64,000 nt of DNA, taken from the NCBI GenBank assembly GCA_050290185.1, contig JBNKHE010000001.1, forward strand, positions 226,713 through 290,712. The letters are read 5' to 3'. Origin of the DNA: Pontiella sp. Its GTDB lineage: Bacteria; Verrucomicrobiota; Kiritimatiellia; Kiritimatiellales; Pontiellaceae. The position numbers were made by a program. Positions 33,001 to 38,387 of the stretch are shown piece by piece (within the stretch, counting starts at the first letter, position 1; each line of letters opens with the position of its first letter).

Positions 33001-36000
33001 GCATAATACTGCACGGCCAGTCCGCGTTTGCCGTCAGGCGTGCGCAGATACTTCTGCGGAATGGTCGGTGCCGGAGGATTGTCCACGTTGAACATGGGAC
33101 GGGTCACCGGATGAACCAAAAACGCCGGACCGAACATGAAGGCATCGCTGATGTTGCGAGCCTTGGCGTCATTCGAAAAGTCCAGCGGCAGGGCGCGCAT
33201 GAGCGTATAGCCCTCGCTCGTGACCTTCCAGGTTTGACTGTAGAGATAGGGCATCAGGCGATAGCGCAAATGCGTAATGTCGAGCAGCGACTGATACATC
33301 TCCGGATCCATCTCCTTAAAGATGTAAGGCTCCCGCTCAATGTTGGTGCCGTGCACCCGCATCAACGGGTTGAACGCCCCGAACTGGTACCAGCGCGCAA
33401 ACAGTTCGCGATAAGCCGGGTTCTGTTCGCCGCCGGGGAAGTTGTTGACAAAGAAACCTCCAATATCCTGCGTCCACCAGGGATTGCCCGACATCGTCAC
33501 ATTGAGTCCGCCGGCCATCTGCGCCTTAAGCGTGTCCCAGCTGGCAAACGAATCGCCCGACCAGGACGCCGCCGCATAGCGCTGCGCGCCGGCCCAGGCA
33601 GAGCGCGTCAGGGTGAAAACGCGCTGGTTGTTCACGGCGCGCTGCCCTTCATAGGTTCCCTTCGTGGTCATCAGGGTATAGGGATTCAGATAGCGGGAAA
33701 AATCGCCCATGGCATTGATGCCGAGGCGCTTGATATCGCGCGACACTTCGTTTGGATTCCAGCAGGCCGTGCCGACCTCGACTTCGGTACCGTCCATCCA
33801 GAGTGCGTCAACTCCCTTGTCGAGCAGCCCCTTCTTAATATGCTTGAAATAAATTTCCCGCCCCTTTTCGCTGAAGGCATCGTAAATGCGGGCCTTTTTG
33901 GAAATCCAGTGCAGGGGTTCAAAACGTAGACCGTATTGATCCAGTTCCTCAGCGAGCGGCGTGTCGTTGCCTACGCCGGGCCAGATGGAAATCATCAGCT
34001 TCATGTCCAGATCGTGGATCGACTCAATCATGCCCTCCGGATCGGGATAGCGCTCCGGATTCCAGATCATCCCGCTCCAGGTACCGTCCTTGTCAGATCC
34101 CCAGTACTGCCAGTCCTGCACAATGTAATCGAGCGGGAACTGCTCCTTGCGGAAGGTCTTGGCCACTTCAACGATGCGCGCCTGCGTCTTATAGCGCTCC
34201 TTGCTCATGAACAGGCCGAGGGCCTGTTTCGGAATCATCGGCGCGTCGCCGGTGAGGTTCCGGTAGCCGACAATCGTGTCATTGAGGGTATCGCCGGTGA
34301 AAAAGTAATAATCCACCCCGCCCGGTGCACTCTCGGCCCAGAGCCGGGCCCCGTTTTCATCATCCTTGAAATTCATAATGGAATAGGTATCCCACATGAT
34401 TCCGTAGCGTTCGCTCGAAAGAATCATCGGAATCACAATCCCCAGATTCGTCTGAATCAGCTTCAGCTCCTGCCCGCGGCGGTTGATTTCCGCCGGAGAG
34501 GAATCAACATACCCGAAGCCATACCAGCCTTCGTCGGGCTTCAGGGTAAAGGTATTCGCCACTTCATAGGTCGGCGCACCGGAAATTTCCACCGGTTTAA
34601 TCTCCGACGGTCTGTCCGCCCTCTCCTGCGTCAGGACCTTGCCGGAGGCATCCATGAATGTCAGTGCGCCGGTTTCCTTGTCCGCCTTGATCTGCAGTTG
34701 GTCCGTGATAATGGTAATGTAGTCACCTATCTCCTTGACCTTGAACGGAACCGTCGCCGGCTTGCCCACGACCACGATGCTGGGATATTTCCAAAAGTTT
34801 TGGCCGAGGTTTTCGTTCACGCGGACGGTGGTCGGACCGTAGAAAATCACATTCTTCACCCGGTCGCCGATACGAAGTTGAACACCGCTTTCCAACTGAA
34901 CCGCGGAAAACCCGTTATTCACGGAGCTTTCCACCGCCATCAGATGTCCGTTTTCATCCAGCCCAGTCGGAGCCGCCTGGGAAATCAGGGCCACACCAAA
35001 CCATGCCACCGACAGCAGGCCGCATGCAGCCAGCCGGTTCCGCCCAACGTTTTTCAATACCATCATACCACCCTCTATGTTGAACCCCGTTCCGTTTGAA
35101 CCGCTAGAAAAAACGGAAAGAAGCGGTTTCAATACATAGAGGCGCCATGCGGTCAAATTTCCGGCCACCTATTTCAGGGGAATACCGCGCGCATTGCCAA
35201 AAATCCGCGCTCCGGAAATCCGGCAGGAACACCGTCTTAAAGCATTCCGGGAAAGGTCTTTTCCGCTTCCTCGACAAGGAGCGTGGCTAAAACCCAATCG
35301 TACCAGAACCCCCTGGGATTATCGCCGTATTCTTCTATTCTGTTCAAATCGCGAGGCAGTCCGGACTCGACCATAAAACGTCCCGCGGCCAATTCCCCGC
35401 GGGCTTCGTCGAACAGGCCCTGCCGGCCCAGTGCCATGGCCAACACGATGTGATCCAACGCGATCCGTGCCGCCGAGTGATCCGGGCAGATCAAATTCTT
35501 TTTGGACCATTGGGCTGCAGCTTTATAATTCCCCCTACGATATTCGTAAATGGAAAGCGCCCAGACCCGCCAGGCCATGACCGTCTCATCAAATTCAGAC
35601 ACTGGAACATCACTCGTCGCCGACCTTTCCAGAATGCCGGCCAATGGCTTCAAGGCCATGAGTACCGAATCTTCGCAGGGACGGACCAGACACATTTTTA
35701 TGATCTGCTCGGCCGCAATCGGATTTCGCGTGGCAGCAAAATGAACGAGGGTATCCTCGACGAATTCTTCGTATTCCTCCAGGTCTCCAGCCGCCACCAG
35801 CGATGGAGCGACGCAAATCAGACCGCGCGTTGCCTCGGAGGTCATGTCGGTTGGGTCCACCCGGCTTGCGCGTACAAATTTCAGCAGATGTTCTGCTCCT
35901 AACGACCAATTCCCGTCAAAAATGCGCCATTGCGCCAGATTCAGAAACAGATCCCGGGCCTCGAGCGAGGGTTTGATCACCGGAAGCTCACAATCCGCGA

Positions 36001-38387
36001 CCAGCTGCTCCGCCTCGGCATATTGATTCCGGCTCAGGCATACTGCGGCTGTGGCAATCTTTTCACGCGCTTCTGCCTCTTCGCGCAGGACGGCCTCATT
36101 TTTCCGGGCGGCTTCTGCCACACGTTCTGCCGCAACGGCGCGCTGACGTGCGACCCGCTCGCGAGCCAGCAGCCAGCTCGACGTTGCCAGTCCGGCCAGC
36201 AGGACCGCCAGCACGGCGCACACCGAAACCACCATGCCCCGGTGCCGGCGTACCATTTTTTGAAAACGGTAACGTCGGCTGGGCGGCCGGGCTATGACCG
36301 GCTCGTGGTTCAAGTACCGCTGGATATCCATGGCGAAGGCTTCCACCGTTTCATAGCGTCGATCCCGATCCTTCTCCAGCGCCTTCATCACGACCCAGTC
36401 CAGATCTCCCCCGAATGCGCGTTCCAACGACGCAAAATCTCCCATGCTTCGGCTCAGGCTATCGCGCTTGAAAACACTCAGTTGGAGCAGGCGGACGGAG
36501 GGTCGCGACGGCTCCTGTTCCATCAGGATTCTCCGCATTTCATCGATCCCATCATCCAGCAAAGCACGTCTTTCGAACGGCGTGCTGCCGGTCAGGAGTT
36601 CATAGAGCAGGGTTCCCAGACTGTAAATATCGCTGCGCGTGTCCAGATCGGCCCCGCCCTTCCGCGCCTGCTCGGGACTCATGTAGCAAGGAGTCCCGAT
36701 AAAGGGTTCGACCACCGTATCCCCATTGCGCCCTCCTGAAAGTCCTTCGTGGGTGGCCTTGGCGATGCCGAAATCGATCACCCGCGGACGCGGCGCGCCC
36801 TCCTGCAAATCCACCAATACATTGGAGGGTTTGATATCCCGATGGATGACGCCTTTTTGATGAGCATGCTGGATGGCATAGCAGACCTGGATGAAGAGTT
36901 CGAGACGCTGGTCGAGCTCCAACCGGTTTTCGTTGCAATAGTGCGTGATCGGAATTCCGGGCACCAGTTCCATCACAAAAAAGGGCCGGCCGGTTTCGGT
37001 TTCGCCAGCATCGTAGACGTGGGCTATGTTCGGGTGCTCCATCATCGCCAAGGTCTGTCGCTCTGCCTCAAAACGCGCAATGACACTTTTCGTGTCCATG
37101 CCCCGCTTGATGATCTTGAAGGCTACGAGCCGCCGGACCGGCGAGGACTGTTCCGCCACATAGACCTTGCCGGCTCCGCCCTCGCCGATTTTCCGCACCA
37201 GCTTGTACGGTCCGAACTGCTTGCCCACTTCTTCGTCTTTCTCGAAAGCGCTGCCGGCCTTTTGAAGGATGCCATCGATCCCGTCGAGGGTTTCGGCGAC
37301 CTCTGCGGTGGTCACATGCGTCGGGGCATCGGTTGAAAAAAAGGCTTCCGATTCGCCCACGGCCGACAGCAACCGTTCCACCTTGGCGCGCAGTTGCGGG
37401 TCGTCGCCGCAGGCCTGCTCTATATAGGCCGCCCTTTCCGAATCGGAATCGATTTCCATGGCGGAGAAGAAGATTTCGTCGGCCCGCAGCCGGTCCTGGA
37501 GTTCATCGCTCATCGAATCAGTTTGACTCCGCACGGATCCGTTCATAGAGCCAGGCGCGTGCGCACGACCAATAGCGCCGGACGGAGCGTTCGCCCATAC
37601 CCAGCGCCTCGGCGATCTCCGGCTGGGTCATACCGCCGAAATATTTCATCACCACGATCTTAGCCCATTCCGGGTGAACCTGTTCCAACTGCGTCAGGGC
37701 ATCTTCCACCAGCAGGATTTTTTCGTCTGTTACCGCATCCGCCAGATCCGTGATTTCAAGATCGACGCGTTTGCGGGAGCCGCCCCGTTTCAAACGGTGT
37801 TTGCGGCGGGCATGTTCGACGAGAATATGTCGCATGGCCCGGGAGGCGGCTCCGAAAAAGCTGGCGCGGGTTTCCCAGCTCCGCTCCTCTTCACGCACCA
37901 TCCGCAGCCACGCCTCGTGCACCAGCGCGGTCGGCTGAAGAGTATGCTGCCCGGCCTCATCGGCCATGCGCGCACCCGCAAGCCGGCGCAATTCGTTGTA
38001 CACCAACGGCATTAGCTTTTCGGATTCGATACTGCCATCGTCTCCGATGGGAATCAGCTTTTCACTGTGATCATTCATACTCTTGGCCGCAGAATTGGAA
38101 TTTAACCGTGTATATATGCCAAATTATACGGCTGATCGCAACTACAAGGATAAAGCGCATAGCCCCTCCGGGCATCCATTAAAGGAGAGAGATCAATCAG
38201 AGCCTCCCGTACATTCAGGAATAAACCCGAGGCGGCAGGGCTTCCGAAACGATCTCCTCCTCGAGGACAACCGACGCATGTGCCGGACGTGAAGAGAAAC
38301 ATACCATACCGGCAACGGCCAAAACCATAAGTGATTCCAACCTGTCGTTCCCAAAAAGCTTTTTATCCCCTCTTCCCTATCGATCTA

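Follow-up and report, generated by a model that had tools for sequence, protein, structure and literature searches.

The 64,000-nucleotide stretch of the Pontiella sp. genome analysed here (the window) carries an ECF sigma factor gene followed by a gene for a transmembrane Hanks Ser/Thr kinase, flanked by a GH2 gene on one side and by GH31 and GH43 genes on the other (Table 1). Both belong to a run of 16 consecutive minus-strand genes (21692-63880), broken by crude ORF calling, in which two operons with putative boundaries are predicted. Judged by its families, the enzyme set seems aimed at hemicellulose or xyloglucan. A scan of 34 window ORFs gave neither a SusD nor a TonB-dependent receptor family. 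Since the window lacks a SusC/SusD pair, the locus is a CAZyme gene cluster and not a canonical PUL in the Bacteroidota sense.

Table 1 Features of the window (window positions) and sigma/kinase pairs of the genome (contig positions, contig named).
Feature	Position	Strand	Basis or remark
Operon B, behind promoter 1	28376-35066	minus	3 genes; predicted operon
GH43-CBM6, second gene, operon B	28376-29764	minus	
GH43-CBM6, operon B	29771-32152	minus	
GH31-PA14, operon B	32121-35066	minus	
Predicted ECF-type promoter 1	35130-35181	minus	A/T tract, -35-like, -10-like; 170-nt gap after kinase
Transmembrane Hanks Ser/Thr kinase	35237-37546	minus	longest ORF 769 aa; Pkinase residues 114-343, E 8.8e-43
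Extracytoplasmic all-alpha TPR-like domain (predicted), residues 462-769	35240-36163	minus	AF2 and Foldseek
Single membrane helix, residues 435-462	36161-36244	minus	hydrophobicity
Kinase catalytic domain, residues 114-343	36518-37207	minus	VAxK, HRDIKPSN, DFG, SPE motifs
Kinase N-terminal helical domain, residues 12-108	37223-37513	minus	predicted docking on sigma region 4
ECF sigma factor, 186 aa	37518-38078	minus	PF07638 E 1.3e-50; TIGR02999 185.5 bits (cut-off 126)
Sigma-70-like promoter block upstream of sigma gene	38105-38150 (approximate)	minus	conservation
Operon A, behind promoter 2	38385-59660	minus	6 genes; predicted operon
GH2, operon A	38385-42296	minus	
Esterase/GH43, operon A	42349-46131	minus	
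CBM6/esterase, operon A	45966-49760	minus	
GH5-CBM6, operon A	49795-54249	minus	
GH5-LamG, operon A	53997-56909	minus	
GH31, operon A	56934-59660	minus	
Predicted ECF-type promoter 2, promoter 1 type	59697-59748	minus	74 nt before GH31 gene
Pair P1 (window pair)	C1:261949-264790		sigma and Hanks kinase
Pair P2	C1:625211-628013		sigma and Hanks kinase
Pair P3	C1:646905-649735		sigma and Hanks kinase
Pair P4	C4:65171-67999		sigma and Hanks kinase
Pair P5	C6:186757-189762		sigma and Hanks kinase

The window sigma factor is an ECF protein with regions 2 and 4 only, matched by PF07638 (residues 14-181) and Sigma70_r4_2; we take PF07638/TIGR02999 to be the ECF43 group. Residues 48-51, in region 2.2, read Q-P-T-A, and thereby uncharged residues and a conserved Thr occupy the place where the acidic DAED/DxxD motif is expected (published consensus QTTA). 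As stated in the preliminary description, this motif is found in three pairs, with V-P-T-A in one and Q-A-T-A in another, and the Thr (Thr50 in the window sigma) is invariant in all 20 aligned sigma factors. In a weak alignment with M. tuberculosis SigL (E 0.11), Thr50 and Ala51 stand opposite Glu41 and Asp42; an alignment of the paired sigma factors with other ECFs of the same genome was ambiguous. The sigma-70-like block upstream of the window sigma gene is conserved in the orthologs of G006, and most paralogs are preceded by a comparable block. Most autoregulated ECF sigma factors have their own promoter motif upstream of their own gene; no copy of the ECF-like motif described below was found upstream of the sigma genes.

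The likely start of the kinase is Met12 at 37513, 4 nt past the sigma stop. Its N-terminal domain (residues 12-108) matched no Pfam family and no PDB sequence. Docking of this domain with the sigma factor gave a score of 0.66, compared with 0.00 for the best of three controls; this mark is reached by 116 of 157 solved complexes vs 2 of 215 mismatched pairs, and may partly reflect likeness to sigma/anti-sigma complexes, since such complexes have been solved. The docking runs agreed in at least 38% of contacts, with a partner pLDDT of at least 68; the predicted binding site of the domain is region 4 of the sigma factor. The catalytic motifs (catalytic Lys, HRD loop, DFG, APE-like) are intact in all 21 kinases examined. 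One hydrophobic window per kinase bears out the single membrane helix reported before, its position shifting from the reported 423-432 to residues 425-465 across the kinases. The identity of the cytoplasmic halves, given as 53-68%, was measured as 54-69%, and the 34-63% given for the outside halves had to be corrected to 21-59%.

The outside domain of the window kinase was modelled with high confidence (AF2 pLDDT 93.3, pTM 0.88). Its best Foldseek matches are TPR proteins (E 5e-4, TM 0.25-0.43) and its VIA Z values of at most 12.7 lie inside the range of generic helical repeats; no Pfam TPR match was obtained on the window kinase. According to the model, the domain is thus a generic TPR-like solenoid, a fold better known for protein or peptide binding. 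It may sense a glycan, and as the signal a partner protein or peptide is ranked somewhat ahead of direct oligosaccharide binding.

A phmmer search of all genome ORFs returned exactly five sigma paralogs, each adjoining one of five kinase paralogs, in agreement with the earlier count, and a genome scan with PF07638 gave the same five strong matches (172-189 bits) plus eight weak cross-matches to other sigma factors. The sigma gene is followed by the kinase gene in all five pairs. No anti-sigma gene was found beside any of them, neither zf-HC2 nor another anti-sigma family occurring among the flanking genes. The earlier 'no anti-sigma' consequently holds for the gene, with the qualifier that the kinase's own N-terminal domain is the part predicted to bind the sigma factor. 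Taken together, the Thr at the acidic position of region 2.2, the intact kinases and the lack of an anti-sigma gene are consistent with an ECF43-type mechanism, as judged from sequence. In three related genomes 5, 7 and 15 sigma matches were counted; among 22 loci fetched from related genomes 16 kinases adjoin sigma factors, most of the remaining loci ending at contig ends, and in other phyla a kinase lies directly downstream of 43 of 60 sigma ORFs.

The gene contexts of the five pairs are as previously described, except that a glycoside hydrolase does not lie beside every pair: an immediate GH neighbour is absent at P3, which adjoins a LamG gene, and at P5, where a PEP-CTERM gene is followed by LamG and BNR_4 genes. 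An immediate GH, CBM or LamG neighbour was found for 4 of 5 pairs vs 3 of 60 random gene-pair positions (Fisher p = 2.5e-4), two of these three falling inside pair clusters, and such domains occur in only 3 of 120 random genes. Counted over three related genomes, 15 of 23 pairs have a neighbour of this kind vs 3 of 43 pairs elsewhere in the wider family, so that the association is specific to this lineage; these statistics overstate independence, because the three genomes with the sigma factor are related to each other and the five loci are paralogs whose surroundings were partly duplicated. The remaining 8 of the 23 pairs have no CAZy-annotated neighbour. Furthermore, GH2, sigma, kinase, GH31-PA14 and GH43-CBM6 follow one another in this order in G006 as well and, up to the contig end, in G011. 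From the earlier proposal that the pairs control glycan clusters, the tie to neighbouring carbohydrate-active-enzyme genes therefore stands, supported in silico by enrichment over random positions, synteny in two relatives and a shared ECF-like motif. The small PEP-CTERM neighbours reported at three pairs were also confirmed: their tails (a C-terminal P-E-P motif, a hydrophobic helix and a basic tail) were seen directly and matched by a tail pattern. The match to NCBIfam PEP_CTERM_THxN reaches 21.6 bits, far under the cut-off of 85 and too low to assign that subfamily.

The DNA following the kinase genes of 11 pairs has in common an A/T tract and -35-like and -10-like elements in a fixed register of 23-24 nt. 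As an exact pattern, the window type of this motif has two matches in the 64 kb, one at ~35.17 and one at ~59.73 kb (none expected from shuffles). Both stand at the head of a predicted operon that begins with GH31, and the two operons together comprise nine genes for glycoside hydrolases or esterases. With a matrix derived from three sites of relatives the window sites score 36.8 and 33.7 genome-wide, compared with a reversed-genome maximum of 21.2. A generic matrix was built solely from seven sites of relatives and scanned over 7.1 Mb. Thereby, the four after-kinase gaps of G000, which comprise 1183 nt and in which ~0.002 such matches are expected, ranked 1, 4, 8 and 10; the reversed-genome maximum was 21.0, single matches near a score of 20 being at noise level. 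The P3 site is weak (16.1-24.6). Second sites of the cognate type were located at C1:620596 in the P2 cluster and at C4:60336 in the P4 cluster, and hence the motif occurs not only behind kinase genes but also at the start of other operons in these clusters. In a search of 31 related genomes, the form with an 11-base spacer had seven copies, all of them upstream of GH31 genes and none outside the three genomes with the sigma factor; the G011:C46 site is probably not independent, as its contig has a GH31 100% identical to the window GH31. The shared promoter-like signal suggests that each pair turns on neighbouring genes for the breakdown of plant or algal sugars.

We consider it probable that the pairs are two-gene signalling modules of the kinase-activated, ECF43-like kind acting on private promoters, as follows. 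The sigma factor would be made from its own sigma-70-like promoter and would by itself probably bind core RNA polymerase poorly, because Q-P-T-A replaces the acidic residues of other ECF sigma factors in region 2.2. The membrane kinase probably holds it through the N-terminal helical domain, with sigma region 4 as the predicted contact. A trigger at the periplasmic TPR-like domain would then cause the kinase to phosphorylate the sigma factor, most likely at Thr50; phosphorylation would thus be the on-switch, and the phosphorylated sigma factor would drive a small private set of ECF-type promoters. In the window this set would consist of the two predicted promoters and their GH31-led operons. 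As an obvious terminator is missing after the GH2 gene, transcription of the upstream operon could run on into the sigma and kinase genes and so provide feedback on them. The other four pairs would act likewise on their own clusters, often with a small lectin-fold protein anchored by PEP-CTERM, and large secreted proteins of the LamG or GH type, as first targets.

If the pairs were instead regulators of envelope or surface remodelling (cell surface or biofilm), their targets would be PEP-CTERM and secreted surface proteins, with the glycoside hydrolases as passengers or neighbours. A small PEP-CTERM protein is indeed the first gene behind the predicted promoter at P2, P5 and L041, and at L042 and L052 it comes after a large protein without a Pfam match; 3 of the 19 PEP-CTERM-tailed proteins of the genome lie within five genes of a pair, and known ECF43 members control stress and defence, in the relevant passages polymyxin resistance and T6SS (PMC8999054). 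The window type, however, has no PEP-CTERM gene, both window promoters running directly into GH31 genes, and the PEP-CTERM protein of P5 has a ConA-like lectin fold whose domain is also fused to two neighbouring enzyme-like proteins, which fits glycan capture better than a purely structural surface role. In our judgement a surface role is unlikely to be the explanation. Idle or decaying duplicates of one ancestral module, devoid of a present regulatory role, would agree with a kinase C-terminal remnant at C4:60526-60870, two orphan N-domain ORFs and the patchy distribution of the family (3 of 19 same-genus genomes), but hardly with full-length ORFs, intact catalytic motifs and the invariant Thr in all five pairs, nor with orthologs in relatives that are 76-82% identical and retain the gene order; this is very improbable.

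The motif itself might be read by another regulator, or be a common promoter duplicated with the loci, the pairs then being incidental in CAZyme islands under LacI or two-component control. Genes for LacI, MarR and a hybrid histidine kinase lie inside or close to the P2, P4 and P5 clusters, and their products could be the real regulators there. P2 and P4 have recently duplicated stretches in common, in the kinase and in the PEP-CTERM tail; of the 31 genomes, the three with the sigma family are also those with close GH31 homologs, as a jointly inherited island would predict, and the generic matrix has its noise-level matches elsewhere. On the other hand, the two-block architecture and spacing are those of an ECF promoter and are oriented toward the downstream genes, and paralogous loci without alignable DNA in common still carry the motif. 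Moreover, the -35-like block varies between sigma groups at constant architecture, in G006 one window-type site precedes the GH31 ortholog on a contig that carries no pair, and no 11-base-spacer copy was found in the 28 relatives without the sigma factor. We accordingly regard this alternative as improbable.

Beyond the private-promoter mechanism preferred here, a wider reading is offered as a tentative and rather doubtful one. It holds jointly that multiplied kinase-activated ECF sigma factors are the main, mutually insulated control of SusCD-less clusters in a Kiritimatiellota/Verrucomicrobiota-like lineage; that the N-terminal docking domain tethers the sigma factor in place of an anti-sigma factor; that the TPR domain reads the substrate indirectly via a co-regulated PEP-CTERM lectin-fold protein or a glycan-loaded partner; that a private -35-like element prevents paralog cross-talk; and that the pairs form a third PUL regulator class besides HTCS and sigma/anti-sigma pairs.

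To our knowledge, the switching of CAZyme clusters in the PVC group (Verrucomicrobiota, Kiritimatiellota, Planctomycetota) is largely unexplained, and we know of no SusC/SusD pairs or regulators in them of the kind that define Bacteroidota PULs. If the pairs are switches, combining a pair with its private promoter motif would allow regulons and substrates to be predicted from sequence; phosphorylation of sigma factors would acquire a nutritional role in addition to stress and defence, and the set would offer naturally insulated sigma, promoter and kinase parts. No link between ECF/kinase pairs and CAZyme clusters was found in the literature searched, Verrucomicrobia included, and the papers retrieved for Kiritimatiell sigma factors and kinases appeared irrelevant. 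In its ECF parts, a 2024 review on the regulation of hemicellulases lists HTCS, sigma/anti-sigma pairs and catabolite repression and nothing else, and its text contains neither 'threonine' nor 'Hanks' (PMC10766802); in the relevant passages of a Pontiella genome paper, histidine kinases and response regulators are the only such proteins mentioned close to GH genes (PMC10880615). ECF43-kinase pairing and mechanism are already known; new is the conserved two-part ECF-like promoter motif just 3' of the kinase genes.

According to the published passages, ECF43 sigma factors are activated by phosphorylation of the region 2.2 Thr (PMC13147305, PMC8999054). As in EcfP/PknT of Vibrio parahaemolyticus and EcfK/PknS of Xanthomonas citri, in the parts of that work concerned with them, a two-gene sigma/kinase unit without an anti-sigma gene is found here, with uncharged residues and a conserved Thr in place of the acidic motif, one membrane helix, a variable outside domain and a short helical N-terminal region before the catalytic domain, comparable to PknS residues 1-81 (PMC13147305). 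Unlike in these systems, the module is multiplied, each copy apparently with its own -35-like element, and the candidate targets are glycoside-hydrolase operons instead of polymyxin resistance or T6SS. With the ECF sigma/anti-sigma pairs of Bacteroidota PULs and SigI/RsgI of Clostridium thermocellum, as treated in the pertinent review sections, the pairs share several paralogous alternative sigma factors, each adjoining and presumably driving one glycan-degradation cluster, and a membrane sensor encoded beside the sigma factor (PMC10766802). In those systems the sigma factor is released from an anti-sigma factor, with input via a TonB-dependent transducer or a CBM-bearing RsgI, whereas the partner here is a Ser/Thr kinase that would activate by phosphorylation, a TPR-like domain instead of a CBM would serve as sensor, and SusC/SusD genes are missing from the window. 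Local GH control by a cluster-encoded sensor is likewise known from hybrid two-component systems and LacI-type hemicellulose regulators, which coexist with the pairs in three clusters; these belong to other protein families, and the pairs would act through a dedicated sigma factor and its promoter class, not through an activator or repressor that binds DNA.

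As outlined in the table, the window pair (P1) consists of a sigma gene followed by a kinase ORF. The sigma matched PF07638 with E 1.3e-50 and the NCBIfam model TIGR02999 with 185.5 bits (cut-off 126), and in the kinase residues 114-343 form the Pkinase domain, residues 435-462 a single hydrophobic helix, and 308 further residues the C-terminal part. Both ORFs overlap by 29 nt; if the kinase starts at Met12, 4 nt separate it from the sigma stop, and no further ORF can be placed between the two genes. For the 3.58-Mb genome of this Pontiella sp. (G000, 163 contigs) genes were called crudely by a greedy choice of the longest ORFs, which gave 2952 genes and misses real ones wherever their longest ORFs share over 90 nt. 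A phmmer search of all its ORFs revealed exactly five sigma paralogs, each adjoining one of five kinase paralogs (pairs P1 to P5), and the PF07638 scan returned the same five at 172-189 bits, the remaining sigma genes reaching at most 43 bits. Region 2.2 of these sigmas reads Q-P-T-A, V-P-T-A or Q-A-T-A, the Thr being invariant in 20/20 aligned family members. The preliminary description was confirmed, with small corrections. In a single-sequence search of solved structures, a weak alignment placed the Thr on Glu41 and the next Ala on Asp42 of M. tuberculosis SigL; a profile search with the sigma matched region 4 and nothing else. Alignment with other ECF sigmas of G000, which are atypical in their own right, placed Q-P-T-A only ambiguously relative to the acidic residues.

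Two more sigma-like ORFs, located 35-40 kb before the window, scored weakly against PF07638 (21-23 bits) and are both followed by a large Hanks kinase (966 aa and 1279 aa), representing a second, different kind of pair in G000. The window also contains an ordinary ECF sigma gene with a zf-HC2 anti-sigma gene, after which (to 22498) genes for a TPR/Glucodextran_B protein, a caspase/CsgG-like protein and an opposite-strand LuxR-type response regulator follow; the related genome G006 carries the same gene set 4 kb off a sigma/kinase pair.

Coordinates of the features discussed (window positions unless a contig or locus is named)
Feature	Position	Strand	Basis or remarks
ECF sigma gene, 186 aa (P1)	37518-38078	minus	ORF, PF07638, TIGR02999
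Protein kinase ORF, 769 aa (P1)	35237-37546	minus	ORF, Pkinase domain
Window-type site 1	35141-35166	minus	exact pattern; between kinase and GH31-PA14
Window-type site 2	59708-59733	minus	exact pattern; 74 nt before 908-aa GH31 gene
439-aa protein	22964-24283	minus	block end; N-terminal hydrophobic segment, no Pfam match
LamG_3 protein, 1015 aa	24530-27577	minus	block end
Ordinary ECF sigma	16864-17478
zf-HC2 anti-sigma	17475-18185
Same ECF/zf-HC2 gene set, G006	L042 14467-19870
P5 downstream trio: PEP-CTERM 234 aa, LamG 871 aa, BNR_4 911 aa	C6:180080-186448 (L006 10480-16848)
647-aa protein (P2)	C1:618450-620393		no Pfam match
688-aa protein (P4)	C4:58076-60142		no Pfam match
114-aa ORF	C4:60526-60870 (L004 15226-15570)		equals the C-terminal 106 residues of one kinase outside domain
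Orphan N-domain ORF, 103 aa	C2:391350-391661
Orphan N-domain ORF, 128 aa	C10:28228-28614
Second kind of sigma/kinase set	C1:187789-191433
Second kind of sigma/kinase set	C1:192764-197301

With respect to the kinases, no credible Pfam family was found for the N-terminal ~100 residues in any of 20 members, nor any NCBIfam family, and comparison with PDB sequences gave designed helical proteins and calmodulin only (E 0.004-0.3), with no family matched. This stretch appears comparable with the 81-residue helical N-terminus of PknS, the Xanthomonas kinase partner of EcfK, which is reported to be invisible in the crystal structure (PMC13147305). The predicted complex of the sigma with the N-domain reached a score of 0.66 (best control 0.00), a mark attained by 116/157 solved complexes and 2/215 mismatched pairs; resemblance to solved sigma/anti-sigma complexes may contribute to this score. 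The runs share at least 38% of contacts at a partner pLDDT of at least 68, and sigma residues 168-182 are predicted to touch N-domain residues 5-20 and 47-63, which supports, at the level of the model, docking of the N-domain on sigma region 4. Two small ORFs, on contigs C2 and C10, are homologous to this N-domain only; no sigma remnants were found beside them, and a promoter-matrix match (score 30.1 for the full matrix and 22.2 for the relatives-only one, see below) precedes the C2 ORF. Both may encode free-standing proteins that bind sigma, or may be fragments of genes.

The outside domain, modeled from 21 sequences, is a confident all-helical repeat (pLDDT 93.3, pTM 0.88), for which Foldseek returned TPR proteins (best E 4.9e-4; LGN-type TPR domains at TM ~0.42). 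Against 48,161 solved chains only generic helical-repeat matches (Z up to 12.7) were obtained, no glycan-binding relative standing out among them, and the modeled fold gives no clue to the ligand. Among the five paralogs the outside domain is 21-59% identical, compared to 54-69% for the cytoplasmic part. The 114-aa ORF on contig C4 looks like the remnant of a sixth pair or like a kinase 3' end duplicated along with the promoter that follows it; downstream of it a near-identical second P4-type promoter (C4:60336), the 688-aa gene, a PEP-CTERM gene and two fucosidase genes follow.

A Pfam scan of all five neighbourhoods found a GH, CBM or LamG immediate neighbour for 4/5 pairs; P5 is followed by a PEP-CTERM protein and then by LamG and BNR_4 proteins. 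For comparison, 60 random adjacent-gene positions with two flanking genes each (120 proteins) were scanned identically, and such a flank was observed at 3/60 positions, two of these within pair clusters, and such domains in 3/120 genes. Fisher's exact test of pairs versus random positions yields p = 2.5e-4, which overstates the difference, given that the five loci are paralogous to one another and that duplicated segments are common to P2 and P4. The enzymes of the window (GH31, GH5, GH2, GH43, GH3, GH27-type, esterases) seem to us to resemble xyloglucan or arabinoxylan systems, and in the orthologous loci fucosidase, GH95 and GH43 genes lie upstream of the GH2 gene.

The sigma family is found in 3 of 31 related genomes, with five matches in G000, 15 in G006 and seven in G011. 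In 22 loci compared from the latter two, 16 kinases adjoin sigmas, and most of the remaining sigma loci are cut by contig ends. A GH, CBM or LamG neighbour occurs in 11/18 assessable pairs or sigma loci of G006 and G011, and in 15/23 if G000 is included; these counts omit L048 and L049, where a contig end leaves only a sigma fragment, as well as L055 and L056, two distant sigmas for which no kinase was seen. The P1 orthologs (sigmas 82% identical in G006, 81% in G011) keep the order GH2 / sigma / kinase / GH31-PA14 / GH43-CBM6, in G011 as far as the contig reaches, and G006 has a third P1-type copy (76% identical), preceded by GH10 and an MFS transporter and followed by GH31-PA14 and GH43. In 80 loci sampled more broadly (Verrucomicrobiota, Planctomycetota, Acidobacteriota, Gemmatimonadota and others) a kinase lies directly downstream of 43/60 sigma ORFs, but a GH or LamG flank is present in only 3/43 pairs, one from the same lineage as G000; pairing thus characterizes the family as a whole, and the CAZyme link is a speciality of this lineage. 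Lectin-like flanks were seen in two further pairs. The closest named records in this sample are metagenome bins assigned to Pontiellaceae, Pontiella and Verrucomicrobiia.

Long gaps of 170-371 nt follow the kinase genes, and those of 11 pairs have a motif in common, directed towards the next gene: an A/T-rich tract, a -35-like block opening with T-G and a -10-like block, the C-G of its C-G-C following 23 or 24 nt after the T-G. As judged by sequence, this arrangement is the layout of an ECF promoter. The upstream regions of the sigma genes carry another, sigma-70-like pattern, the conserved block of which was missed by a simple sigma-70 scan. A matrix derived from seven sites of G006 and G011 only, run over both strands of G000, placed the gaps behind the P1, P5, P4 and P2 kinases at ranks 1, 4, 8 and 10, ~0.002 top-ten hits being expected in these four gaps (1183 nt). 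Single matrix hits near score 20 are not significant, because the reversed genome reaches 21.0; the generic matrix also matched at C25:413, C3:159833, C1:313641 and C6:114029, and alone it is insufficient to define regulons. A loose pattern with mismatches gave noise only. With a matrix from all 12 sites the best new matches all fell at pair-related places: at C4:60336, ahead of the 688-aa gene of the P4 cluster and directly after the 114-aa kinase remnant, ahead of the 647-aa gene of the P2 cluster, ahead of an orphan homolog of the kinase N-domain and, weakly, ahead of a LamG gene diverging from P3.

In the P1 group the motif takes a distinctive form, whose exact pattern occurs twice in the window (0 expected, 100 shuffles). 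Site 2 precedes a run of six enzyme genes headed by the 908-aa GH31 gene; the last of them, the GH2 gene, lies shortly before the sigma gene. Neither the gap after the GH2 gene nor that after the kinase gene showed a terminator-like hairpin on the minus strand. When a matrix was built from three sites of the relatives, the window sites scored 36.8 and 33.7 genome-wide, the next match being the P2 site at 25.9 (reversed-genome maximum 21.2). The 800-nt gap 27578-28375, which separates the two genes at the end of the minus-strand block from the operon behind site 1, contains no promoter-matrix match. Among the 31 related genomes, the pattern with the 11-base spacer gave seven sites, all within the three sigma-bearing genomes and none in the other 28; with other spacers, seven matches were scattered across six genomes. 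GH31 genes lie downstream of all seven 11-spacer sites, six identified by Pfam and one by 79% identity to the window GH31.

In what we consider the best reading, the kinases activate the sigma factors, and each sigma has a small promoter set of its own at the head of glycan-degradation operons; here phosphorylation and signal, along with operon limits and substrate, are inferred. The activation step would follow the published ECF43 mechanism (PMC13147305, PMC8999054). That the motif is instead recognized by another factor inside a co-inherited island seems unlikely to us, and control of surface proteins by the pairs equally so. Close GH31 homologs were found in the same three sigma-bearing genomes only, a co-occurrence that fits co-inheritance as well as functional coupling. 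One G006 site fronts a GH31 ortholog on a pair-free contig, so that the site goes with the target gene rather than with the kinase gene alone. The site on the 4.4-kb contig C46 of G011 (L126) is probably not independent of the window site, its GH31 being 100% identical over 908 aa to that of the window at 81% for the sigma ortholog; as G011 is listed with 8% contamination, this contig may belong to a G000-like organism.

PEP-CTERM-tailed proteins, of which G000 has 19 in 2952 genes, were found within five genes of three pairs, and seven occur in the relatives' loci. The three P5 downstream proteins have a domain of ~200 aa in common (E ~1e-62), and the model of the PEP-CTERM protein is a ConA-like beta-sandwich (pLDDT 77.6) resembling L-type lectins and GH43 or GH16 accessory or catalytic sandwiches (E ~5e-5, TM ~0.5), which fits a surface glycan-binding role at the fold level only. 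The 647-aa and 688-aa proteins, both behind the second promoters of their clusters, have a similar C-terminal stretch of ~60 residues, which may be a sorting or anchoring tag. That the pairs are idle duplicates is hardly credible; in the P1 kinase the VAxK, HRD, DFG and SPE motifs are all intact.

Taken as kinase-activated sigmas with private glycan-operon promoters, the pairs unite features of known systems. Both the sigma/kinase mechanism and ECF-controlled glycan loci are already known, and a link of ECF sigma/kinase pairs to glycan-degradation clusters was not found in the literature searched. New here are the combination of the two, the multiplication of the module inside a single lineage and a specific prediction of promoters tying the pairs to GH operons. 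Whereas the known ECF-controlled glycan loci act via anti-sigma factors, the pairs of G000 couple the sigma to a kinase instead.
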